Below, one piece after another: positions 1 through 11,072 of a DNA stretch of 64,000 bases (its first letter is position 1; the number at the start of each line of letters is the position of its first letter). The DNA comes from an uncultured bacterium (GTDB taxonomy: Bacteria; Bacteroidota; Bacteroidia; J057; JADKCL01): positions 64,163 to 128,162 of the forward strand of contig CAWUKT010000009.1 in the NCBI GenBank assembly GCA_963923035.1. The letters are read 5' to 3'. A program made the translations under genes and the position numbers. The notes below the pieces were generated by a model. The model made no database searches, was not told the origin of the DNA, and saw only the letters and a program-made list of their open reading frames with translations.

Positions 1-677
1 AATGAACCCAGCAGGAAGCCACCGACTCCAGTGAAGGCGTGCCACAAGAAGTGAGTGCCCATGGGCAGAACCTCCGTGACGACAGGCCACGGATCGGCTT
101 CCCGACACAACAGGGCGGTCCCAAAGGCGAGGAAAGTGGCGATGATGGTAAAGGTCCCTTTTCCTTTCATTTGAACCAGCAAAATGATCAACGGAATCAA
201 AAAGCCGAGTCCTCCTACGGCATAACTGAGGTTGATGGAGAGGGGAGGTTCAAAACTGGACGCCACCCCAAATCTAGCCGCCCCCAAGGCAATGATGACC
301 AGCGTGGTGATATGCCATTTTCGGAGGACCTTGGCCCAGAGGTAAATGGTGACGGCGAGGGTCACTACGGCCGCTGGCGCAAAGTCCATGACCAGCAGGG
401 CATTGGAGGAGCGGGTGGCGTGGAAAAGGGTGCTGCCCAATCCATTGAGGAAGAGGAAAGGCATACAGAGAGTGAGGAACCAGTACTGACGGTACCGTCC
501 CCAGAGCCGCCACGCCCAATAGACGGCGGGCAAGGCAATCAACAACGACGACCACGCGTTGAAGGGTTCTACGATGACTTCTCCCGGAACATTCGCGGTT
601 TCGGCATAAATAGGTCCGAAATCGAGTATCCCAAGATGGTCACGGATCAAGCTGTCGGAGTTGATAGGATTTGCCAT
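1..677 (-). CDS. Alkaline-ceramidase-like (CREST superfamily) integral membrane hydrolase; 3' end runs off the window
   Basis: Absent from the ORF track because there is no stop inside the window. My reverse-strand translation from ATG 677-675 gives MANPINSDSLIRDHLG..VEPFNAWSSLLIALP..GSTLFHATRS..LLVMDFAP..GTHFLWHAFTG. This is a multi-TM protein with the ceramidase-type N/S, FH, D and HxxxH motif order. Confidence 0.6.
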   Translation of the reverse strand, partial: MANPINSDSLIRDHLGILDFGPIYAETANVPGEVIVEPFNAWSSLLIALPAVYWAWRLWGRYRQYWFLTLCMPFLFLNGLGSTLFHATRSSNALLVMDFAPAAVVTLAVTIYLWAKVLRKWHITTLVIIALGAARFGVASSFEPPLSINLSYAVGGLGFLIPLIILLVQMKGKGTFTIIATFLAFGTALLCREADPWPVVTEVLPMGTHFLWHAFTGVGGFLLGS

Positions 678-795
678 TTCTCAGTTTAAAGCTAAGGTAA
701 TTTTCCGCAAAGCAGCTTCCCCATTACCGAATGCTGCTCCCCATTTCAGTAGGTCTAACTGATAAACTGAGAGATTGTGAGATTTTGCTAAGGAT

Positions 796-1494
796 TTATT
801 CAATTTTATCTGTCAACCAGACGGCTCCAGCAATGGATTCTCCGCGGGCCGCGGCCCGGCAGGCCTGATCGGCCCGTCGCATGGGTTCGATGACCCGATA
901 GGGACCACCCATGGCGAGAACGGCTTGGACCGCCCGGTCCAGATTGATCAGGTGTCCCACGCTCACAAAGACCGGCTTCACGCCGGTCACCGTCCGCAAG
1001 GCCATGCCCACGACCTGGCCCTGGCACTTGATTTCCAGGCAACTGCCCTGTTCCGATCCCAGATCGTCCTGAAATGGGAGCAGGCTCTCCTTGGCCAGCC
1101 CGATGCAGGGCTTGTTCATCTCCAATCCCAGCCAGCTGGCCACTCCGAACAGTCGGGGATGGGCGCGCCCGTGGCCATCGACCACGAGGCAATCGATCTG
1201 GTCGAGGGCCATGCGCTGCAAGGCCGATCGCAGCACCGGACCTTCGCGAAAGGCGAAAAATCCCGGTTGGTACTCGGCTCGGACCGCTTCCTGGGTCAGG
1301 TAGGTTTTGATGTGGCGGTCGGGAAATTCGTGCAGGTCAATGGCGACGAAGGCCGTGGTGTCCAGGTATTGGACGTCGAGGGTGGCAATGATTTGGCCGG
1401 GATGGGGAATCCCGGGGTCGGAGGGATGCTCGGTGAGCACCTGGGCCGCCAGCGCTTGTTGCTGGCGTTTCATTTCATCTGGCGTCCATTCCAT
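796..1494 (-). CDS. nfi: Endonuclease V (deoxyinosine 3' endonuclease)
   Basis: The translation has EYQPGFFAFREGP and VVDGHGRAHPRLFGVASWLGL, matching the PGxLxFRE and DGxGxxHPRxxGxAsHxG motifs of Nfi. Start is ambiguous between ATG 1494 (MEWTPDEMKRQQQ) and ATG 1473 (MKRQQQ), which lies 1 nt after the upstream stop. Confidence 0.85.
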   Translation of the reverse strand: MEWTPDEMKRQQQALAAQVLTEHPSDPGIPHPGQIIATLDVQYLDTTAFVAIDLHEFPDRHIKTYLTQEAVRAEYQPGFFAFREGPVLRSALQRMALDQIDCLVVDGHGRAHPRLFGVASWLGLEMNKPCIGLAKESLLPFQDDLGSEQGSCLEIKCQGQVVGMALRTVTGVKPVFVSVGHLINLDRAVQAVLAMGGPYRVIEPMRRADQACRAAARGESIAGAVWLTDKIE

Positions 1495-4006
1495 GCCACG
1501 CCATTTCAAATTCAATTTCCGGGAATGCACTCCTGAATTGTCTTCTCCAGCTGAGCTGGAGGGGCTGCCATTCTGCTTCGCGAGATGGGTTGAGCTTTCC
1601 GTAGAGCCGGGTTTGAAGTGTACCGGTATCGGCTGTCCATTCGCCCATTGGCTGCAAAGGGCCGTCGATCAGGGGGCTTAGCTCCTCTATCCAGGCCTGT
1701 TCTTCGATCCATCCGCGGGCGGCAGCCTGTGCATCGGTATCGGTAACCCCGATGGTCAGGGAAAGGTAAGTTTCCGAGGATGGGGCGGGCGAGGAGAAAA
1801 AGTCCAGCCAGGAGGCCTCGCCGCGTTGGATGCGCCAAATGGTATCCAAACCCTGCCGAAATTCCTCCTGGAGGTGGAGCAGAATGGCGGAGGGCACCTT
1901 GGAAGTGGTATTCGTGGGGGGAAATCCAACGGACAGTACCTGCATTGGAGCGTCAAACTGGGCGGTATAGTAGCCCTCGCGGACGGTGAGCGGATTCCGC
2001 CAATCGTGCTGGATCAGCCGCTGGAACATGTTTTCCAACCATTTCTCCGGCATTTCTTCCGCCTCCGTTCCCGCCAACATCAACAGCCAGGCCATAATCG
2101 ATGGGTATCCCCACTGGGGCTGGTTGATGTTCCGGGCGCTGGTCCACAATTGGAGGGCGTGGAAGGCGTTCCCGAAGATCGCCAATCCGGCATCGAGGTG
2201 CCGACGCAAGGCTGCGACTTCCAGCGATATGGTCAGGACGGCCTGGTCTGCGTCGGAAAAGCGTTTGAATGCTTCGGTCGGCAATTGGCTCGGACGGACC
2301 AGGGGAATGTCCTCCGGGTAGCTGACATAGGCCAGGTTGATGTCGAGTCCTCCGGTTTGCAATCGGCTTCCCTCTAGGGTATCCACACCATCGTTTTCGC
2401 GCCAGAATTGTTGGAAGGCGGCCAGTTTTTGCCGGCCCACGACCAGCAAATCGAGCCCAACAGCGGGAACTTTTATGTCGAGACCGCTCAGTCCCACCGT
2501 CCAATGACGGCTGTGGGTATCCCACCGCTGCAATGTCATTTTGACCAGGGCATCCGCTTTTCGCCGATTCACAAGTTCCAACGCATTGAGTTGTAAGCCG
2601 CCCATGGCCAGGGCCGTCGTCAGATTTTGATCACGAAGCCGGAACCGGTGCTTCTTACCCGCACCTGTATCCCAGGGGATCACTTTCCGGACCACCATAG
2701 GGCCGTCGCCCCGTCGACTCAGGAGGCAGAGCGCGCCGACCTCATCTTTCCAATCGATCAGCACCTTTTCAAGGTCTTGCTTGGTATCCATCGCATTCCA
2801 TTGGCCGGGAATCTTGGCGATGGTGAGGTGCGGCTGAAAATCACCGTGGCGGTCCTGCTCGGTGCATTGCGGGAAGACTTCCTGGCAGATTTCCTGGAGT
2901 TGTCGGAACCGGTCGGTGGCATGGGCATCGGGTTTCCACCACAAGACGGTCTTCCGCCTCTGCTCAAAGTGGCCAATACCGCTGATTTCCAGTGAGAAGG
3001 AGGCTTCTTCTGAGAAGGCGAGTGAAAGGGCCGCGGCCGCAGCAGGAAACAAGGCATCGGGAATGAACCCGTAGAGCAGGTTGATATGGGGCATCCAACG
3101 GGAGAAGTCAGGATCGATATCCCGCCGAATGGACTGGATCGGCCCCCACAGGTGGGGCGGCGGAACGTAGGCCAGGGCCGAGCGGTGGGTGATCGGAGCT
3201 TCGGCCAGGTGCCGGTAGGAGGGATTCAGGAGAAAAGTCGCGACCAGAATTCCCTGTGAGGGAGATTCGGCTTGCCAGGGAACCAATTGGGCGTGGGGGC
3301 TGGCAAATGCGATGTGGGGCGTATCGGGATGCGGAGTGTCGGGCTGCAAGCGTTCCCAAAGGTCCGTTTCGAGGGGCTGGGAATGGATGGCGACCGAGGG
3401 CATATCGGAAGCGAGGCTGGGACCGAGGTGAAATTGAAAGGGTTGGGCGTTGAAGGAAAAGCGGAGGCCCAGGTGGTCTTCCCGTTGGATTTGGGAGGGG
3501 GCAAAGGGGGAATAAACGGTGCCAGCGCCCTCAGGGGCGTCCCAGCGGTACCAGCCCGCAAGGGCGGGCAACCAGGAGGGCGGGGAACCCGCTGCCACCA
3601 CAAAATCCATTTTGAGGACCAGGGAGGCCGCGTCAGCGGGCGCAGGGGCATTTTCCTCGACCACCATCCACCGCAGCCATTCGACTTTGTAATTGTCACC
3701 GCCTGCTTCCGGATCGGTTGGAGACTCATTTTCCCGCCAAATCTCCTCCGGTTTCGATTCTCCCGATCCAAACACCCGGTCTTTGCGCGTTGCCCGGTCC
3801 CAAATCCGTTCCCCATCCAACACAAAGTACCAGACCCGTGACCAAGGAATCCGGCCGCCAGGATAAAATTCCGTCAGCTCCATTTCCATGGTGCCGGAAT
3901 GGCGGTCTTCGTAGCCAATCCGAATCCGGTCGAGCGGGAATTCACCACTCCATTTCAGGCGGTGGTAAACATCTTCAGAACTGCGCAGGGGACGTTTGGG
4001 GGCCAT
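1475..4006 (-). CDS. Multidomain RNA-end processing protein: MJ1316/DUF504-like N-terminus, 2H phosphoesterase, poly(A)-polymerase-like nucleotidyltransferase
   Basis: 843-aa ORF. N-terminus is DVYHRLKWSGEFPLDRIRIGYEDRH..IPWSRVWYFVLDGERIWDRATRKD (MJ1316 pattern). Two HxT/N motifs (WMPHINLLYGF and QPHLTIAKI) mark a 2H fold. GLSGLDIKVPAVGLDLLVVG followed by GGLDINLAYV is a pol-beta/PAP-type NTase signature. Confidence 0.85.
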   Translation of the reverse strand: MAPKRPLRSSEDVYHRLKWSGEFPLDRIRIGYEDRHSGTMEMELTEFYPGGRIPWSRVWYFVLDGERIWDRATRKDRVFGSGESKPEEIWRENESPTDPEAGGDNYKVEWLRWMVVEENAPAPADAASLVLKMDFVVAAGSPPSWLPALAGWYRWDAPEGAGTVYSPFAPSQIQREDHLGLRFSFNAQPFQFHLGPSLASDMPSVAIHSQPLETDLWERLQPDTPHPDTPHIAFASPHAQLVPWQAESPSQGILVATFLLNPSYRHLAEAPITHRSALAYVPPPHLWGPIQSIRRDIDPDFSRWMPHINLLYGFIPDALFPAAAAALSLAFSEEASFSLEISGIGHFEQRRKTVLWWKPDAHATDRFRQLQEICQEVFPQCTEQDRHGDFQPHLTIAKIPGQWNAMDTKQDLEKVLIDWKDEVGALCLLSRRGDGPMVVRKVIPWDTGAGKKHRFRLRDQNLTTALAMGGLQLNALELVNRRKADALVKMTLQRWDTHSRHWTVGLSGLDIKVPAVGLDLLVVGRQKLAAFQQFWRENDGVDTLEGSRLQTGGLDINLAYVSYPEDIPLVRPSQLPTEAFKRFSDADQAVLTISLEVAALRRHLDAGLAIFGNAFHALQLWTSARNINQPQWGYPSIMAWLLMLAGTEAEEMPEKWLENMFQRLIQHDWRNPLTVREGYYTAQFDAPMQVLSVGFPPTNTTSKVPSAILLHLQEEFRQGLDTIWRIQRGEASWLDFFSSPAPSSETYLSLTIGVTDTDAQAAARGWIEEQAWIEELSPLIDGPLQPMGEWTADTGTLQTRLYGKLNPSREAEWQPLQLSWRRQFRSAFPEIEFEMAWHGMDAR

Positions 4007-4196
4007 GGAGCGAATTTCAACGAAAAATCAACGGGAAGCAATTTCCCCTGCGCCTTTGACAGAGGTTGTCCAGGTTCGATCCTACTTTGAGGGTGTATCC
4101 AGAACAACCCAGAACCTAGAACCATGATGAATCCAGTAAATTGTTTGAAGCGTCTTTTTCGTTGGTGGAACTACGTCTTGAATTGGGCGGGAAAAT

Positions 4197-4217
4197 CGCA
4201 TTCGTGGGCCGAATGCG
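4197..4217 (-). terminator. Candidate intrinsic terminator after the desaturase/orphan gene pair
   Basis: Perfect 8-bp stem cgcattcg/cgaatgcg with a 5-nt loop. On the minus strand it is followed by ATTTTCCC. It lies 48 nt downstream of the stop at 4265. Confidence 0.45.
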
Positions 4218-4264
4218 GGCCCACGGAGCCGTGTTGTGATGCCGTGGCCTTGCTCCAGTGCTGA

Positions 4265-4741
4265 TCAGCGGAAGTGTTGTTCCATTTCGGTGAAATGGGG
4301 ATGGGACACAATTTGGGGGTAGCGCCGCAAAATATCCTGCCAGAGGGACTGCCGGAAGTCGCCGAAGCCTTCTTTGAACTCGCGGAAATCCAGCCGAATC
4401 GTCGGCTGGCTGCGGTCCTTCAGGTTTTTGATCAAAAACAGATTGTCTTCCTTGACCAGGAGCAGGTCAAACCGCTGCTCCGGATCCGAAAAATTGATTT
4501 CGTCGAGGCGCATCCGCCCCATGATGCTCAATTGGCGCCGCAATTGCACTCCAAACCACAACAAATCAATGTCTTCCAGCACAATTCGCCGCTCGGGGTT
4601 CCATTTCTCCGAAATCTCCATGTTCCCGTACAGCACTTCCCGCGCACCCACCCGCTGCTGCTCTGTCGTAGGGAGCCGACCCCCCTCCAATTCAGGCGAT
4701 TGGTTGGTCCATTGGTAAGCGATCCCGTTCAAATCCTTCAT
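4265..4741 (-). CDS. Hypothetical protein (158 aa), translationally coupled to the upstream desaturase gene
   Basis: Long ORF. ATG at 4741-4739 overlaps the upstream TGA (4740-4738) as ATGA. No motif recognised. The longer ORF-track start at 4858 would overlap the desaturase by 120 nt. Confidence 0.6.
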   Translation of the reverse strand: MKDLNGIAYQWTNQSPELEGGRLPTTEQQRVGAREVLYGNMEISEKWNPERRIVLEDIDLLWFGVQLRRQLSIMGRMRLDEINFSDPEQRFDLLLVKEDNLFLIKNLKDRSQPTIRLDFREFKEGFGDFRQSLWQDILRRYPQIVSHPHFTEMEQHFR

Positions 4742-5649
4742 GACTGTGCTTTCGTAGAGGACGAAGATATTTGCTTCCGCATTTGATTGGCTGTCAGGGT
4801 GCTGCCATCGTGGGACCATCCGGGCGGCGCGAAAACATACCGCCATTTGTCTCCCCATTTGGGAGATTTTTGAAGGTCCCGGAGCAGCTGCGCGTACTCA
4901 TGGGTCGCGATCCGAAACGGATTGTTCGTCGCAATATTGGTCGTCAAGCCATATTCGACCGGTTCCTCATCTCGCTCCGGCTCAAATGTCCCGAACAACC
5001 GGTCCCAAATGATGAGGATTCCGGCGTGGTTGCGGTCGAGGTAGCGGACATTGGACCCGTGGTGGACGCGGTGGTGAGACGGCGTATTGAAAATGAATTC
5101 GACGATGCGGGGAAATTTGCGGACGGTTTCGGTGTGGAGGAAAAATTGGTAGACCAGGCTGATGGACATCATGGTCAGGACCATCAGCGGATGGAAACCG
5201 ATGAGGGGTAGCCACAGGTACCAGATATATTTGTGGAAGAGTTCACCCCAGCTTTGACGCAGCGCTACGGCGAGGTTGTACTGTTGGGAGGAATGGTGGT
5301 TGACATGGGCCGCCCAGAACAAGCGGATTTCGTGGCAGGAGCGGTGGTGGAGGTAAAAGGAAAAGTCATCCGCGAGGAAGAGGAGGAGCCATGCCCACCA
5401 CTGAGATCCGATGTCGAAGATGGCATATTGGTGGATGAAGGAAAAGACGAGGAAAACGACCACCTTCACGCCCAGGTTGATGATGGCGCTTCCGAAGCCC
5501 ATCGCCAGGGAAGCCCACGCATCTTTGTTGTCGTAGGCTTTCCGTTGCTGGCGTTGACGAACGTAAATCTCCAGCCCGATGAACACGAAGAACAACGGGA
5601 CCGCCACACCGAGGACGGGATCCATGAAGAGACGTTCTGGTAAATCCAT
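4738..5649 (-). CDS. Fatty acid hydroxylase / sterol desaturase family membrane protein
   Basis: Histidine boxes HHRSCHE, HVNHHS and HHRVHHGS sit in a multi-TM protein, typical of the di-iron FA_hydroxylase superfamily. Confidence 0.85.
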   Translation of the reverse strand: MDLPERLFMDPVLGVAVPLFFVFIGLEIYVRQRQQRKAYDNKDAWASLAMGFGSAIINLGVKVVVFLVFSFIHQYAIFDIGSQWWAWLLLFLADDFSFYLHHRSCHEIRLFWAAHVNHHSSQQYNLAVALRQSWGELFHKYIWYLWLPLIGFHPLMVLTMMSISLVYQFFLHTETVRKFPRIVEFIFNTPSHHRVHHGSNVRYLDRNHAGILIIWDRLFGTFEPERDEEPVEYGLTTNIATNNPFRIATHEYAQLLRDLQKSPKWGDKWRYVFAPPGWSHDGSTLTANQMRKQISSSSTKAQS

Positions 5650-5716
5650 GCAACTTTTTATCTCTGTAAAAATACGGATTCAGTTGCAGATGGACAATGG
5701 GGAAAAGAACGGGTGC

Positions 5717-7597
5717 CTAAAAGCGCACCCGTAAACCGGCCTGGTAGCCCAGAAATCCGCGGTGGCGGATCCGTTCGGCGTAGGATTCCAGGAAGTAATT
5801 CTGGCCAATATTGGAGGGCAATTCACCCGCAAAATCACCGTCGGTGACCATTTGGTGATGCAGGGCAGGGCCTCCGTAGACTTCAAGCCAGGGCAATGGC
5901 CGCACCAACGCGGAGGGGCGAATGGCCTGGACGAGGTGAAGGCGATGGCCCAATTCTTCTTCCACGACCTGTTGCAGGTTGTACTCGAGCTCGAGGTCCA
6001 GCCAGGAAGTGATGCCAATATGGGTACCGAATCCCCCGCCGTAGGTCCAGCCGGGATTATTGGTGTCGCGGATGCGGGCGCCGACTGCAAGGAGAAAATA
6101 GATTCGGTCCGTTCCAGTCCGCAAGCCAAATTCTACATCGTTGATGGTATTGTTGGTCAGTCCGACGGAGCGGTAGCCATTTTTGGACCAGTTTACCAGG
6201 CCGATGGCGGTGCCGTCGAGGGTATCGGCCACATTGATGAGGCCGATTTGGATGCCCTTGATGTACTTGGCGCGGTTGTACAAGCCGGAGATTTGAAAAC
6301 CGGTAATGGAATCGCTGGCGCTGTTGTACAGCCCGGAAATTTGACCACCTCCGACTTTTCCATTCGCCGTATTTCCTAATCCCGCAATCTGCATTCCTCC
6401 AATTTCTTTGCCTTTGTTCACCAGCCCTGCGATCTGGCCGGTCTTCACGTGCCCCTTCGAGACATTGACCAGGCCCGCAATTTGGCCGCCATCGACGGCT
6501 TCGGGGGCCATATTGGTGACGCCCGCGATTTGGAGGCCGGAGACATGCTGCTGGCAGAGGTTGGCGATTCCAGAAATCTGGATGCCCTGGATCGAGTCGC
6601 CGACGAGGTTGTAAATGCCGCCGATCTGGACCCCTTGGACCGATCCTTTGACATGGTTGTTGATCCCACCGACCTGTACGCCGGTCATGCTTCCGCCTAC
6701 GATATTGGCGATTCCGCCGACTTGGACGCCCATCACATCCTCGCGGATCAGGTTGGCAATGCCACCAATTTCAACGCCCTGGAGGCCTTGGGAATAGCCC
6801 GCCAGCAAATTGATGGAGAGGTGGTTGGTCATGCCGCCGCTCATGGAGCCATTCGTGCCGATGGACGGGACGAGGGAAATCTGGACGGGGAACCGCGCCA
6901 AAGCGTGGTTGATGTTGAAGGCCCGGCGGCGCTGGGGTTCGGGCACGAAGAAGTTGGCGAGGGGAAGTTCTTCGGTGAATTGGTCGCCGACGAGGCTGAC
7001 CATTTGGGGATCGAGGATCTCCCGCGGCAGCGGCATCAGGCCCACCGTGAGGTTGTTGGTGGCATTGGGGCGGACCACAATCACCGTGTCGCGGTAGCCG
7101 TACCGCGAAAAGGAAACCGGAACCTGGTTGAGCCGACCGGGAATCTGGATGCTGTATTTTCCTTCCTTGTCCGTCAGGGTCGATTCATGCTTCTCCGATT
7201 CGTAAACCGTCGCGTATTCGATTTTTTCTCCCGTCTTCCCATCGATCAGGTAACCACTCAGCGTGATGAATTCAGGCTCCTCGGGAGTTTTCTGGATGTT
7301 CAGACGCAATACCACATGGTTGCCCACGGACGTAAAGGTCATTTGCTCCCCAAACAATTCCTCCAAGCCAAACCGGACCGTTTCCCGGCGCAGTTGGAGA
7401 GAGACGACGGAATCGGGATTGATGATGTCGCTGTTGTAGGCAAAGGAAAACTTCCCGGCTTCGGCCATTTGGTCAAGGGCCTTGTTGAGGGCATCCTGCT
7501 GGACACGCACCGAGATTTTGCGGGCGAGGGGATTGGTTTGGGAAAATAGGGCCAGAGGGAGGCAGAAGAGGAGGAAAAAGGCAAATTTAGCAGCCAT
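5717..7597 (-). CDS. STN domain + carboxypeptidase-regulatory-like domain + 16-residue-repeat outer-membrane protein
   Basis: Signal peptide MAAKFAFFLLFCLPLALFSQ. STN-like segment ISVRVQQDALNKALDQMAEAGKFSFAY. CarboxypepD_reg-like segment ITLSGYLIDGKTGEKIEYATVY. About 13 tandem GxQ[IV]xG[IL]xN repeats. C-terminal ..GYQAGLRVRF ends in an aromatic residue as OMPs do. Start chosen at ATG 7597 (signal peptide); the ORF extends to 7702. Confidence 0.8.
   Translation of the reverse strand: MAAKFAFFLLFCLPLALFSQTNPLARKISVRVQQDALNKALDQMAEAGKFSFAYNSDIINPDSVVSLQLRRETVRFGLEELFGEQMTFTSVGNHVVLRLNIQKTPEEPEFITLSGYLIDGKTGEKIEYATVYESEKHESTLTDKEGKYSIQIPGRLNQVPVSFSRYGYRDTVIVVRPNATNNLTVGLMPLPREILDPQMVSLVGDQFTEELPLANFFVPEPQRRRAFNINHALARFPVQISLVPSIGTNGSMSGGMTNHLSINLLAGYSQGLQGVEIGGIANLIREDVMGVQVGGIANIVGGSMTGVQVGGINNHVKGSVQGVQIGGIYNLVGDSIQGIQISGIANLCQQHVSGLQIAGVTNMAPEAVDGGQIAGLVNVSKGHVKTGQIAGLVNKGKEIGGMQIAGLGNTANGKVGGGQISGLYNSASDSITGFQISGLYNRAKYIKGIQIGLINVADTLDGTAIGLVNWSKNGYRSVGLTNNTINDVEFGLRTGTDRIYFLLAVGARIRDTNNPGWTYGGGFGTHIGITSWLDLELEYNLQQVVEEELGHRLHLVQAIRPSALVRPLPWLEVYGGPALHHQMVTDGDFAGELPSNIGQNYFLESYAERIRHRGFLGYQAGLRVRF
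6176..6778 (-). repeat. Intragenic tandem array, ~48-bp period (about 13 copies of a 16-aa GxQxxGxxN unit)
   Basis: Units read from the translation: GVEIGGIANLIREDVM / GVQVGGIANIVGGSMT / GVQVGGINNHVKGSVQ / GVQIGGIYNLVGDSIQ / GIQISGIANLCQQHVS / GLQIAGVTNMAPEAVD, and so on. The periodicity also produces the stack of shadow ORFs listed for 6408-6800. Confidence 0.8.
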
Positions 7598-8567
7598 CCC
7601 CCGAGAAGGTAATTGTAGTTCCATCTTGTTGTGCTTCAAGTTGCATAGAGGTCGAAATGACCTCCACGATGGATTCGATGGATTCATCAACGAAGACCGC
7701 ATTCAAGCGGCAGTTTTCTACTGCTTTGGGCTCAAATTGGATGCTGACCTGGTAGAATTGTTGCAGGTCGCGCGCCACTTCTTCCAGAGGAGTCTGGTTG
7801 TACTTGAGGCGGCGGTTTCGCCAGAACAAAGCGTTGTCGTCCAACGTTTCGACGGCTCCCACTTTGCCCTTGTCGTAGCGCACCTGTTGACCAGCTTCTA
7901 CCTTGACGGCCGATTCAGCCGAGGCCCCTTTGAATTCCACTACGCCTTCGGTCACCTGTACCACCACCTCTTCTTCCGCGCGAACATTGAATTCGGTCCC
8001 CAAGACCCGGATTTCAGCGCCACCCGCCTCTACAATAAAGGGGCGTGCACTTTTCTCCTTCACGTCGAAGTAGCCTTCTCCCGTAAACTTCACCCTGCGC
8101 TCGGTACCCGGCAGGCCCTCGGCATAGGTGATGCTTGCGCCGGGCCGCAGGGTAACGGTACTCCCGTCGGGAAGCTCGGTTGAGGCGGGTTGGTCGGTGG
8201 CATTGGCAAATGTCACCTGAGACGTGGGCTCGAGGCCGTCCCGGTTGAAAAAGAGGACGAGGCCGGCAGCAACCACGAGCATTGCGACGGCGGCGTACCA
8301 TCCGTACCTTTTCCACAGACTGGGGGCCGGAGCCGGAGCTGAGCCCATCCGGTGCTGGACCTTTTTCCAGGCAGCATCCACATCGACCAGGGCCGGTTCC
8401 GCTTGGGAGGTATCCCAAACTTGAGCCAGGGCGTCATACTCGCTTTGGTTGGCCGGGTCAGCCGCCAACCAGGCGCTGACTTCGGCGGCCTCCGAAGGAG
8501 TACATTCTCCCGCCAGGTGCTTGCCCAGCAGCTCATAGTCGATGCGATATGGATCTCCGTTGTTCAT
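7587..8567 (-). CDS. FecR-family anti-sigma factor / transmembrane sensor
   Basis: N-terminus MNNGDPYRIDYELLGKHLAGECTPSEAAEVSAWLAADPANQSEYDAL, a single TM (YGWYAAVAMLVVAAGLVLFF) and a FecR-type periplasmic domain. Sits directly downstream of an ECF sigma gene. ATG 8567 is preferred over GTG 8576. Confidence 0.85.
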   Translation of the reverse strand: MNNGDPYRIDYELLGKHLAGECTPSEAAEVSAWLAADPANQSEYDALAQVWDTSQAEPALVDVDAAWKKVQHRMGSAPAPAPSLWKRYGWYAAVAMLVVAAGLVLFFNRDGLEPTSQVTFANATDQPASTELPDGSTVTLRPGASITYAEGLPGTERRVKFTGEGYFDVKEKSARPFIVEAGGAEIRVLGTEFNVRAEEEVVVQVTEGVVEFKGASAESAVKVEAGQQVRYDKGKVGAVETLDDNALFWRNRRLKYNQTPLEEVARDLQQFYQVSIQFEPKAVENCRLNAVFVDESIESIVEVISTSMQLEAQQDGTTITFSGDGC

Positions 8568-8625
8568 CGATTCCACCAGTAAGACAACTCAGTTGCCCAA
8601 TACCCGTATATAAAATTTATTTTTT

Positions 8626-9216
8626 TCATAATTCTCCCCCTCCCAAGGTTAACCACCAGATAATCAGGGGTAAAATATCTTTCAACGCACTCCGCAATTG
8701 CTTGAGGGCCTTCCCAATTTGGACTTCAACCGTTCGGGGAGAGATGCCCAGGCTCTCCGCAATCTCCTTGTATTTCTTGCCTTCGTACCGCGAAGCGACG
8801 AAGACCTCCCGGCAGCGGGGCGGGAGTGCCTCGACCGCCGCATCAATGCGTTGGGCCAGTTCCCCGTGCTCCAATTGTTCCTGGGGGCCCGAGCTTTGGC
8901 CGAGGCTGGTCAGGCGATCGGCAATGCCTTCCTGGTGTTGGCGACGGACCTTGTGGTGTTGGAGGTAGTTGAAACACCGGTTGCGGACGGCGGTGAACAG
9001 GTAGGAGCGGAGGGAGGTGGACAAGGAAAACTGCTGCCGCTTTTCCCACAATTGAAAGAAGAAGTCCTGAACCAATTCCTCGCTTTCATCCGGGTCCTGG
9101 ACAAAGCGACGGGCAAATCCCACCAAATTGGGGTACCAACTCCGAAACAGGCGCTCGAAAGCGGCTTCGTCACCCGATTGAATGGCCTGGACGATATGTG
9201 CGTCTTGCGGATCCAA
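8626..9216 (-). CDS. ECF (sigma-70 family) RNA polymerase sigma factor
   Basis: Region 2 (AFERLFRSWYPNLVGFARRFVQDPDESEELVQDFF) and region 4 (LPPRCREVFVASRYEGKKYKEIAESLGISPRTVEVQIGKALKQLR) are recognisable. Uses a TTG start. Confidence 0.9.
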   Translation of the reverse strand: MDPQDAHIVQAIQSGDEAAFERLFRSWYPNLVGFARRFVQDPDESEELVQDFFFQLWEKRQQFSLSTSLRSYLFTAVRNRCFNYLQHHKVRRQHQEGIADRLTSLGQSSGPQEQLEHGELAQRIDAAVEALPPRCREVFVASRYEGKKYKEIAESLGISPRTVEVQIGKALKQLRSALKDILPLIIWWLTLGGGEL

Positions 9217-9437
9217 GGTCGTTCCTTGCCGACAAAATAATACGGAGTCTATCGGACACGCAAAGAAAAGTGAATGTTTTCGGGGCAGACGACTAACTGC
9301 AACCAGTACCCAGCTAGGAATGCTTACGCGTTCAGTGAAGAGGAGGGAGGTAGGAGAGTCAGTTCGGCAACCAGCCGAAGGCGCCTCTGAATGGCAGGCG
9401 TGTTTTTTCCCAATTTACTTGGCATAAGGGGTTGGAG

Positions 9438-9446
9438 TTATCCACA
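9438..9446 (+). promoter_or_regulatory. Perfect DnaA box TTATCCACA, downstream side of dnaA
   Basis: Exact consensus 9-mer. It is embedded in GTTATCCACAATTT, the same 14-mer context as the box at 11406. Confidence 0.6.
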
Positions 9447-9568
9447 ATTTCGAGAATGGGCCCTGTCATGGGGCGGAAATGTCGGTTTTGTAGAAGAGTT
9501 GCCCTTCAGAGTTGCTACAGGCGGGGTTGGGGGCTGCTTTCGCACCCAAAAGGTGCAGGAAACAAATC

Positions 9569-9584
9569 CCGCCCATTTGGGCGG
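9569..9584 (-). terminator. Candidate dnaA terminator hairpin
   Basis: CCGCCC/GGGCGG 6-bp GC stem with a 4-nt loop, 52 nt downstream of the dnaA stop. On the minus strand it is followed by GATTTGTTTCC. Confidence 0.45.
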
Positions 9585-9635
9585 AATTTTGTTATTTCTT
9601 GATAATCGGTTCTTGGTCGTTTGATTTCACCTAGA

Positions 9636-11072
9636 TCAGGTGAGGCTCATGGAGATCTTCTTCTTGATGTCGTCGATGTTTTTCCGGAACTCTTTGTCGA
9701 TAGAGATCAGGTCGTTGACCGTTTGGACGGCGTGGATGACGGTACTGTGGTCGCGGCCTCCAAAGTGCATCCCGATGGTCTTCAGGGAAGACTTCGTGAG
9801 CTCCTTGGCGAAGAACATGGAAATCTGGCGGGCCTGGACAATCTCCCGTTTCCGGGTCTTGGCCTTCAGCAATTCCTGGTCGACACTGAGGTGTTCGCAG
9901 ACCAGCTTCTGGATGGCATCGATGGAAATCTCGCGGCTGACATTCTTGATGAAGTTCTTCAGCATCTGCTTGGCGAGGTCCAAGTCCACTTCGCGTTTGT
10001 TCAGGGAACTTTGCGCGAGCAAGCTGATCAGGGCACCTTCCAATTCCCGTACGTTGGTCGAGATGTTGTGGGCGATGTATTCTATGACATCGGCCGGCAA
10101 CTCGATTCCATCCTTGTACATTTTGTTCTTCAGGATGGACACCCGGGTCTGGTAGGAGGGCGTCTGAAGGTCGGCGCTGAGGCCCCACTTGAAGCGGGAC
10201 AACAAGCGTTCTTCCATGCCTTTGAGGTCCTTGGGAGCGCAATCGCTGGTCAGGACAATCTGCTTGCCAGATTGGTGTAAGTGGTTGAAAACGTGGAAGA
10301 AATGATCCTGCGTTTTCTCTTTGCCGGACAAGAATTGAATGTCGTCCACGATCAGGACGTCGATCAGCTGGTAGAAGCTGATGAAGTCGTTGACAGTGTT
10401 ATTCTTGATCGCCTCGATGAATTGGTTGATGAATTTCTCCGAGGAGACGTAGAGGACAATCTTGTTCGGGTACTGGGCTTTAACCTCGTTGCCGATGGCC
10501 TGAGCGAGGTGGGTCTTACCGAGGCCAACGCCTCCGTAGAGCAAGAGGGGGTTGAAGGCAGTCTGTCCGGGTTTGGTCGCTACGGCATAGCCAGCGGCCC
10601 GGGCCAGGCGGTTGCAATCGCCTTCGATGAAGTTTTCAAACGTGTAATTCGGATTGAGTTGGGAGTCAATGTTAATCTTTTTGATCCCGGGAATCACAAA
10701 GGGGTTGGGGACGGATTTACCGATGTTAATCGGCATATTCACCGCAGGATTGCGGGTATTCACCTCCTTCGAGGAAGTGGGGATATTGATTGAATACTTA
10801 CGCCCTTCGTCGAGGTTGTTCTCCACGATGATCGAGTATTCAAGTCGTCCGTCGGGACCCAAAAAGTGTTTGATGGTTTTGCGCAGCAAGGAAACATAGT
10901 GCTCTTCAAGCCATTCGTAGAAGAACTGACTAGGGACTTGGATCGTCAGCACTTTGTTTTCTAGTTTCAGCGGTCGAATAGGTTCAAACCATGTTTTGTA
11001 ACTTTGTGGGTTAATGTTATCCCGGATAACCTCCAGACACTTACTCCATACGTCTTTGTAATCTGATTTCAT
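9636..11072 (-). CDS. dnaA: Chromosomal replication initiator protein DnaA
   Basis: 478 aa. Walker A LLLYGGVGLGKTHL, AAA+ core VLIVDDIQFLSGKEKTQDHFFHVFN, and C-terminal DNA-binding domain KTRKREIVQARQISMFFAKELT..IGMHFGGRDHSTVIHA. Confidence 0.97.
   Translation of the reverse strand: MKSDYKDVWSKCLEVIRDNINPQSYKTWFEPIRPLKLENKVLTIQVPSQFFYEWLEEHYVSLLRKTIKHFLGPDGRLEYSIIVENNLDEGRKYSINIPTSSKEVNTRNPAVNMPINIGKSVPNPFVIPGIKKINIDSQLNPNYTFENFIEGDCNRLARAAGYAVATKPGQTAFNPLLLYGGVGLGKTHLAQAIGNEVKAQYPNKIVLYVSSEKFINQFIEAIKNNTVNDFISFYQLIDVLIVDDIQFLSGKEKTQDHFFHVFNHLHQSGKQIVLTSDCAPKDLKGMEERLLSRFKWGLSADLQTPSYQTRVSILKNKMYKDGIELPADVIEYIAHNISTNVRELEGALISLLAQSSLNKREVDLDLAKQMLKNFIKNVSREISIDAIQKLVCEHLSVDQELLKAKTRKREIVQARQISMFFAKELTKSSLKTIGMHFGGRDHSTVIHAVQTVNDLISIDKEFRKNIDDIKKKISMSLT

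Follow-up and report, generated by a model that had tools for sequence, protein, structure and literature searches.

In the 64,000-nucleotide stretch of contig CAWUKT010000009.1 analysed here (the window, on which all positions below are numbered), an open reading frame (ORF) of 843 codons with an ATG start occupies positions 1475..4006 of the minus strand. Its product, called the query in the following, consists from the N- to the C-terminus of an MJ1316 domain, the putative remnant of an EEP nuclease/phosphatase, a 2H phosphoesterase domain, and a poly(A) polymerase (PAP)-like module with palm, central, and RRM-like domains. With moderate confidence, we regard the query as a reduced member of a bacterial MJ1316–EEP–2H–PAP family that would bind RNA 2',3'-cyclic-phosphate ends and act on them as a phosphodiesterase, using pseudo-enzyme scaffolds, and that would be co-expressed with endonuclease V (EndoV). 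What is shown are the domains, the states of their residues, the fold, and the synteny, whereas all activities, the substrate, and a functional connection with EndoV are inferred. MJ1316 and 2H are the only modules of the query that keep their functional residues. The original prediction for this gene, an enzyme that heals and then tails RNA ends, is not supported for the query, in which catalytic residues of the palm and of EEP have been lost.

Modules of the query and their catalytic residues

The ORF is real, its N-terminus (MAPKRPLRSSEDVYHRLKW) lines up with the N-termini of the homologs in the alignment, and the identical protein is found on five contigs of public assemblies. All motifs quoted in the original prediction are present at the expected residues of the 843-residue protein, namely DVYHRLKW (12-19), IGYEDRH (30-36), IPWSRVWYF (53-61), WDRATRKD (69-76), PDTPHPDTPH (222-231), PHINLLYGF (306-314), PHLTIAK (392-398), VGLSGLDIKVPAVGLDLLVVG (504-524), and GGLDINLAYV (552-561). 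The three modules that had been proposed, MJ1316, 2H, and a PAP-type module, are real according to Pfam, Foldseek, and a search with the family profile. All of them are encoded on the minus strand. Pfam places MJ1316 (DUF504, PF04457) at residues 8-71 (3794..3985; 46.0 bits at a cut-off of 26.3), 2_5_RNA_ligase2 (PF13563) at residues 282-434 (2705..3163; 113.2 bits at a cut-off of 27), and PAP_central at residues 611-738 (1793..2176; 28.8 bits at a cut-off of 27.1). The Pfam models of the nucleotidyltransferase (NTase) palm (PF20750, PF01909) and of EEP gave no match in the query, so that of the anticipated profile matches those to MJ1316, 2H, and PAP_central were obtained but not the one to the palm. 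The AlphaFold2 model of the full-length protein has a mean pLDDT of 78 and a pTM of 0.67.

The MJ1316 domain is reportedly named in a comparative-genomics paper of Burroughs and Aravind from 2016. The query retains nine of the ten MJ1316 columns that are conserved to at least 90% in the family, the family residues scored being R35, E41, P54-W55-x-R57, W69-D70-R71, and D76. Where PMC6514570 cites Burroughs & Aravind 2016, the domain is predicted to recognise RNA 2',3'-cyclic-phosphate ends, and the Pfam match together with the conserved columns marks the domain of the query as a predicted reader of such ends. In the 2H domain 32 of the 38 equally conserved columns are kept. Both motif histidines, H307 (motif 1, H307-I-N-L-L-Y312, His codon at 3086-3088) and H393 (motif 2, H393-L-T-I-A-K398, His codon at 2828-2830), are found in all 71 aligned sequences, and the position of Y312 is conserved to at least 90% across the family. 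The HxN and HxT motifs, from which a 2H fold had been predicted, are therefore a conserved property of the family. In the E. coli enzyme ThpR (LigT), which has the motifs HxTxxF and HxTxxR, His43 is the general acid and His125 the general base, while Phe48 stacks on the base and Arg130 is in contact with the phosphate (PMC4201822). The query shares the 2H fold with ThpR, and its HxNxxY and HxTxxK parallel the two ThpR motifs. However, ThpR is a stand-alone single domain, whereas the 2H domain of the query is fused to other modules, belongs to the PF13563 branch, and has an Asn for the Thr in motif 1. Against TIGR02258 the query scores 34 bits, below the cut-off of 65.7. Stand-alone 2H proteins of about 180-230 residues with the same RWMPHINL motif are widely distributed among bacteria (many of the loci L062-L083 and L098-L169) and are also present in metagenome-assembled genomes of Asgard archaea (Promethearchaeota, L084 and L085), and the 2H module of the fused family is part of this larger uncharacterised branch.

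The segment between MJ1316 and 2H had been left unassigned in the original prediction, at a length of about 150 residues. It actually comprises about 195 residues (81-275, 3182..3766) and appears to be an eroded, catalytically dead EEP nuclease/phosphatase, the remnant of a fourth module that is intact in nearly all relatives. In our alignment (A1) the segment fills the EEP slot of the homologs, being about 120-130 residues shorter than an intact EEP. The catalytic motifs LNVL (Asn), LQEV (Glu), GDFN, and SDH are absent or deleted, and only nine of 39 columns conserved to at least 90% in the family are retained. A comparison of the EEP slot with hhalign resulted in a match that is collinear yet weak (P=0.0037, probability 8.9%). 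Residues 61-300 were modelled with a pLDDT of 70, and a Foldseek search of the PDB with this model returned almost exclusively EEP folds, TDP2 being first, followed by sphingomyelinase C, inositol 5-phosphatases, and APE1. With E-values of about 2e-3 these matches are marginal, their TM-scores are 0.35-0.41, and intact EEPs were part of the alignment behind the model; an EEP fold of the segment is therefore likely and not proven. For the intact EEP of the family, the nearest match of the profile is also TDP2 (E 6e-22). The segment includes the duplicated PDTPH (3314-3343), at which position the homologs have 'RPDDPGxTFDP'. Its two copies are identical at 11 of 15 nucleotides, but a tandem repeat at the DNA level was rejected, since Tandem Repeats Finder reports none.

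The C-terminal half of the query has the fold of a canonical PAP. The top Foldseek matches of the full model are yeast Pap1, bovine PAP, human PAPgamma, and S. pombe Pla1, with E-values of 6e-18 to 1e-15 and TM-scores of 0.6-0.68 (target-normalised), whereas Cid1 and the TUT enzymes reach only about 1e-8. Because the matches to canonical PAPs extend over 440-490 columns, the C-terminal about 100 residues (741-843, 1478..1786), which have a beta-alpha-beta secondary structure, are regarded as the equivalent of the RRM-like RNA-binding domain of the PAPs. The palm (residues 496-600, 2207..2521) is modelled with a pLDDT of 65-94 per 10-residue block, most blocks having 78-94, and with strands at 518-524 and 554-562. 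In the model, the palm, central, and C-terminal folds are thus all kept. The family profile matches PAPgamma at 5e-47. Compared to the canonical PAPs (1fa0, 1q78/1f5a, 4lt6), which are the best structural and profile matches and have the palm, central, and RRM-like domains in common with the query, the query lacks the catalytic triad and the GS motif, its identity is 15-17%, and its PAP module is fused to modules for RNA-end healing.

In contrast to the fold, the catalytic set of the palm is degenerate. In the profile comparison, the family strings 'GS..DlD' and 'vDllya' align to 'GSYRLGVHTKGADID' and 'EIDLVFA' of the PAPs, which carry the triad D113/D115/D167 (bovine PAP numbering). All 69 other full-length bacterial members in the 71-sequence alignment keep G-S, D-x-D, and D/E. 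The query has G505-L506 for GS, G517-L-D519 for DxD, and N557 for the third Asp, and its palm retains three of nine columns conserved to at least 90%. In the central domain, Q619 is found at the position of bovine PAP K228 (mapped via 1f5a and 4lt6), in a column that is R/K in 68 of the 71 sequences. The strings that had been read as an NTase signature are consequently a degenerate version of the GS...DxD...D of the homologs, and of the residues whose conservation in orthologs was to be expected, those of the 2H motifs are conserved while the query departs from those of the NTase. The Pfam palm models, which match P0003, P0011, P0013, and the fungal proteins, match neither the query nor its closest relative P0002. 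Since the serine of the GS motif, two of the three carboxylates, and the K228-equivalent are all lost, nucleotide tailing by the PAP module of the query is unlikely as far as its sequence tells. With the metal- and NTP-binding residues gone, the module is probably an RNA-binding scaffold and not a tailing polymerase.

It is therefore hard to picture the query as the fully active enzyme originally proposed, with 2H opening the cyclic phosphate for subsequent tailing by the PAP module, and we assign a low probability to it. To its credit, the whole PAP fold is retained including the well-modelled palm blocks, D519 survives with D555 nearby, and the sister protein P0002 has the complete set (GS/DLD/E). 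There is also a precedent for a repair NTase extending damaged RNA 3' ends in RlaP (PF10127), an RNA-ligase-associated NTase that adds 1-2 nucleotides to such ends (PMC12776372). However, L506, G517, N557, and Q619 replace residues that are nearly invariant in the family, and the palm models recognise homologs but not the query. In addition, no module of the query is predicted to clear the phosphomonoester that 2H would leave. Because EEP is dead and the phosphomonoester would stay in place, the query would not generate a 3'-OH primer. RlaP and the PAP module both represent NTases of the Pol-beta superfamily in an RNA-repair gene context, but RlaP belongs to another NTase family and is unfused. 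The analogy is plausible for the intact family members only and does not include the query with its degenerate palm.

The bacterial family and the pattern of decay

The family is already present in the databases but uncharacterised, and the query is a reduced, EndoV-coupled variant of it. A word-indexed search of 5.8 billion clusters resulted in 36 relatives and an exhaustive HMMER search in 1787 representatives at E<=1e-3 and 120 at E<=1e-30, and neither of these revealed a protein that is more than 41% identical to the query. In 185,579 species-representative genomes, 130 related loci were detected, either full-length or 2H-only, and a metagenome scan yielded 208 relatives, with P0002 still being the closest. 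The 130 loci belong to Cyanobacteria, Myxococcota, Dactylosporangium, Planctomycetota, Vulcanimicrobiota, and Bacteroidota (Aureispira), and the MJ1316–EEP–2H–PAP family spans at least five bacterial phyla. Full-length bacterial members have about 930-1000 residues and a constant order of MJ1316, EEP (PF03372), 2H, NTase palm, and PAP_central, and the query is homologous to them over its full length and with the same domain order. With relatives such as P0003 (annotated as 'poly(A) polymerase [Myxococcota bacterium]'), P0011, and the proteins of Calothrix, Nannocystis, and Dactylosporangium (L006-L085), which are found at E-values of 1e-75 to 1e-101, it has the MJ1316 and 2H signatures and the PAP central and C-terminal domains in common. 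In contrast to these, it is missing about 120-130 EEP residues, the EEP catalytic residues, the GS serine, two palm carboxylates, and the K228-equivalent. The EEP catalytic set is kept in 67 of the 69 other full-length members, whereas the query keeps only that of 2H. P0011, with 28% identity to the query, has all of its catalytic centres intact.

Fungal proteins of about 1200 residues (Sordaria, Xylaria, Lasiosphaeria) also combine the same four Pfam families in one polypeptide. Their domain order is, however, permuted (2H – EEP – PAP – MJ1316), and their similarity covers just 9-24% of the length of the query. Because the full-length family exists in several bacterial phyla, with a constant order unlike the fungal one, the suggestion of a one-off import into the Bacteroidota had to be given up. 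A Myxococcota protein of 1446 residues (P0015-like, L029) has an N-terminal 2H domain of the same type without MJ1316 and EEP, and its NTase motifs are apparently intact. PADLOC gave no match for the query, EndoV, the ORF upstream of the query, or P0011, and the family is thus not a catalogued defence system. Literature searches for EndoV together with 2H, or for PAP, EEP, and 2H in RNA repair, yielded nothing on this architecture, Burroughs & Aravind 2016 not being covered by them.

The loss of catalytic centres follows a pattern within one subclade. In a neighbour-joining tree, P0158, P0159, P0161, and the fragment P0169, which were recovered by the exhaustive search, group with the query and P0002 in one clade. 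Neighbours with type IX secretion system (T9SS) tails on the contigs of these four point to Bacteroidota as their source. 2H is intact in all of P0158, P0159, P0161, P0002, and the query. P0158, P0159, and P0161 have an intact EEP and a degenerate palm (GS, R-x-D, N in P0158; GL, P-x-D, N in P0159; GL, D-x-E, H in P0161), P0002 has lost EEP and kept the full palm set (GS/DLD/E), and the query has lost both. Judged by these sequences, the decay of the palm is a trend of the lineage and not an error. P0002 is a syntenic ortholog with 41% identity, whose gene is likewise followed by EndoV, ceramidase-like, and acetyltransferase genes. Between the two proteins the identity is 67.5% in MJ1316 and 58.9% in 2H but 27% in the EEP slot and 26% at the C-terminus, the neighbouring genes having 55-80%. 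Such differences fit purifying selection on MJ1316 and 2H, which would be relaxed elsewhere.

This distribution also bears on the question whether the query is nothing but a decaying relic, losing its functions module by module, having no selected role, and being kept only as the upstream gene of an EndoV operon. Two of four catalytic modules are dead, the EEP slot and the C-terminus evolve fast, the gene is missing where DnaA is 87-91% identical, and nothing more than 41% identical was found in the 5.8 billion clusters. Nevertheless, the 843 codons are intact and identical across the five contigs, and the model predicts the folds of palm, central domain, and C-terminus with confidence. While the whole protein fell to 41% identity, MJ1316 and 2H stayed as conserved as the neighbouring genes, which argues against a pseudogene, and they kept 9/10 and 32/38 of their conserved columns. 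We therefore think that a relic is improbable and that the query is a reduced but selected member of the family.

Endonuclease V and the genomic neighbourhood

The gene directly downstream of the query gene encodes a 232-residue EndoV (796..1494, minus strand; Pfam Endonuclease_5, PF04493, 159 bits). Its ATG at 1494 lies within the query ORF, resulting in an overlap of 20 nucleotides with the 3' end of the latter. The protein contains LDVQY, YQPGFFAFREGP, VVDGHGRAHPR, and VSVGHL, which presumably are the catalytic motifs of EndoV. The gene is intact, and its product scores below the NCBIfam equivalog cut-offs. Overlaps with EndoV are also found in the homologous loci of P0002 (L001, 4 nucleotides) and P0011 (L002, 8 nucleotides). 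Based on this gene arrangement we infer that the query gene is co-transcribed and translationally coupled with EndoV, and this coupling suggests that the two proteins act on damaged (deaminated and/or cleaved) RNA.

Published abstracts describe the bacterial EndoV as classically a deoxyinosine DNA-repair nuclease and report that EndoV orthologs cleave both RNA and DNA beside inosine. The pair might thus instead belong to DNA repair, the query processing the ends at EndoV nicks beside deoxyinosine. The classical role of the bacterial enzyme would agree with this, as would the resemblance of the family EEP to TDP2, an enzyme that cleans DNA ends, and the distance of only about 5.6 kb between the gene pair and dnaA. 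We nevertheless consider an accessory DNA-repair function to be quite unlikely. MJ1316, 2H, and PAP are RNA-directed in characterised or predicted relatives, in cyanobacteria the family genes adjoin those of an RNA ligase and a kinase, and the EEP that could have trimmed a DNA nick is dead in the query. Cleavage of inosine-containing RNA by EndoV orthologs, as stated in those abstracts, points in the same direction.

Upstream of the query gene there is an intergenic region of 258 nucleotides (4007..4264, minus strand), which is presumed to be the promoter region of the two-gene unit. It does not contain a sigma-70-type consensus, although the scan does not cover the promoters of Bacteroidota. 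The only sigma-70-type match of the scanned stretch (4442-4470) is inside the next ORF, and matches of the promoter and terminator scan were not more numerous than in shuffled sequence. This next ORF (4265..4858, minus strand), which encodes 158 or 197 residues depending on the start codon, has neither a Pfam nor a PADLOC match nor a counterpart in the homologous loci. There are no Rfam matches across the whole window. On the other side of the gene pair, a ceramidase-like gene (PF05875; 3..677, minus strand) is cut by the window edge. It is syntenic in L001, L171, and L172 and probably stands outside the query/EndoV system; it may be tied to the sphingolipid metabolism of Bacteroidota and not to the RNA enzyme. 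A fatty-acid hydroxylase gene (4738-5649, minus strand) also flanks the locus. Further upstream, genes for a 661-residue STN/CarboxypepD_reg protein, a FecR anti-sigma factor, and an ECF sigma factor are grouped on the minus strand (5717-7702, 7587-8576, and 8626-9216). The 661-residue protein contains many G-[IV]-x-x-G-G-I-x-N repeats and does not match a model of the TonB-dependent-receptor barrel.

The assignment of the DNA to Bacteroidota (metagenome-assembled genome of a Bacteroidia) holds, as the window encodes a T9SS protein and a DnaA (dnaA at 9636..11072, minus strand) that is 91% identical to the DnaA in a metagenome-assembled genome of a 'Bacteroidia bacterium'. Genomes with 87-91% identical DnaA keep the synteny of methylmalonyl-CoA mutase, MeaB, and dnaA. 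On the other side of dnaA these genomes carry entirely different genes, and positions 1-9600 of the window are therefore a lineage-specific block adjoining dnaA. Because the query gene is missing from these genomes and no protein is more than 41% identical, the gene pair is accessory and patchy in its distribution. An origin from a mobile element was considered but is unsupported, the locus being chromosomal and near dnaA, with neither an integrase nor a repeat signature seen.

A different arrangement is found in 11 cyanobacterial loci, where an RNA ligase (PF09414, 121 bits) and an HD/AAA_33 kinase protein (92 bits) are encoded directly upstream of the family gene on the same strand, while the query is paired with EndoV. 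Together with the intact four-module gene this looks like a putative complete operon for healing and sealing RNA. Loci of this RNA ligase/kinase type are L009, L010, L012, L013, L022, L028, L030, L032, L042, L046, L061, and L064. In three Bacteroidota loci with intact EEP (L002, 953-5703; L170, 1-3998; L172, 1-4011), a conserved block lies upstream of the family gene. It comprises a protein of about 880 residues (55-66% identical between the loci; just a sub-threshold match to the BrxC/D P-loop), an Ank-repeat protein, and, in two of the loci, a protein of about 212 residues without a Pfam match. The block could be an operon resembling those of conflict systems, and it is absent from the window. 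The neighbour clusters of Dactylosporangium were judged to be mostly spurious ORFs of high-GC DNA.

Proposed function and its meaning

As a phosphodiesterase that has kept its reader domain, the query could work as follows. MJ1316 would deliver the RNA end with the cyclic phosphate to 2H, which, by analogy to ThpR, would hydrolyse the 2',3'-cyclic phosphate to a phosphomonoester. The roles of general acid and general base in this reaction would fall to H307 and H393, respectively, with Y312 stacking on the base and K398 in contact with the phosphate. Holding the RNA would be the part of the silent PAP module and perhaps also of the EEP remnant. In the intact relatives, the phosphate left behind might subsequently be taken off, or the end trimmed, by EEP, after which PAP might extend the end; these steps would have been lost in the query.

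Several observations weigh against this picture. The EEP remnant was called from its position, the weak hhalign match, and marginal Foldseek matches obtained with a model from an alignment containing intact EEPs. Motif 1 of 2H is HxN and not the canonical HxT/S, the Asn being the norm in the family. In the palm, D555 is located on the same strand two residues before N557 and is a possible substitute ligand. Since P0002 keeps the full NTase set, tailing has not been lost throughout the subclade. Adjacency to EndoV is found in only three related lineages among about 170 loci and is absent next to P0158, P0159, and P0161, so that it may be a matter of inherited synteny no less than of function. 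EndoV leaves 3'-OH and 5'-phosphate ends. As these are not 2',3'-cyclic phosphates, the products of EndoV do not by themselves fit the substrate proposed for the query. Literature searches did not find experimental work on any bacterial or fungal member. The more specific proposal that the query, with its pseudo-PAP and pseudo-EEP scaffold, MJ1316, and an active 2H, is a dedicated partner of EndoV in a new bacterial pathway detecting and processing inosine-containing or cleaved RNA is a tentative one that we consider unlikely.

For annotation, the query illustrates a risk, because its decayed strings resemble an NTase signature and public records already list relatives as 'poly(A) polymerase'. 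For the family, the gradient between members with four intact catalytic centres and those with just one is a natural experiment on the modules that each step of RNA-end processing requires, and it also bears on how polymerases and nucleases turn into RNA-binding pseudo-enzymes. The parts of greatest value for follow-up are the EndoV link, which is a lead on the role of EndoV on RNA in vivo, and the intact relatives. P0011, P0003, and the cyanobacterial operons provide candidate eukaryote-type PAPs in bacteria that are well suited for biochemistry. If this is true, the complete architecture of a canonical eukaryote-type PAP would exist in bacteria, fused to RNA-end healers, which would bear on the origin of the eukaryotic PAPs.

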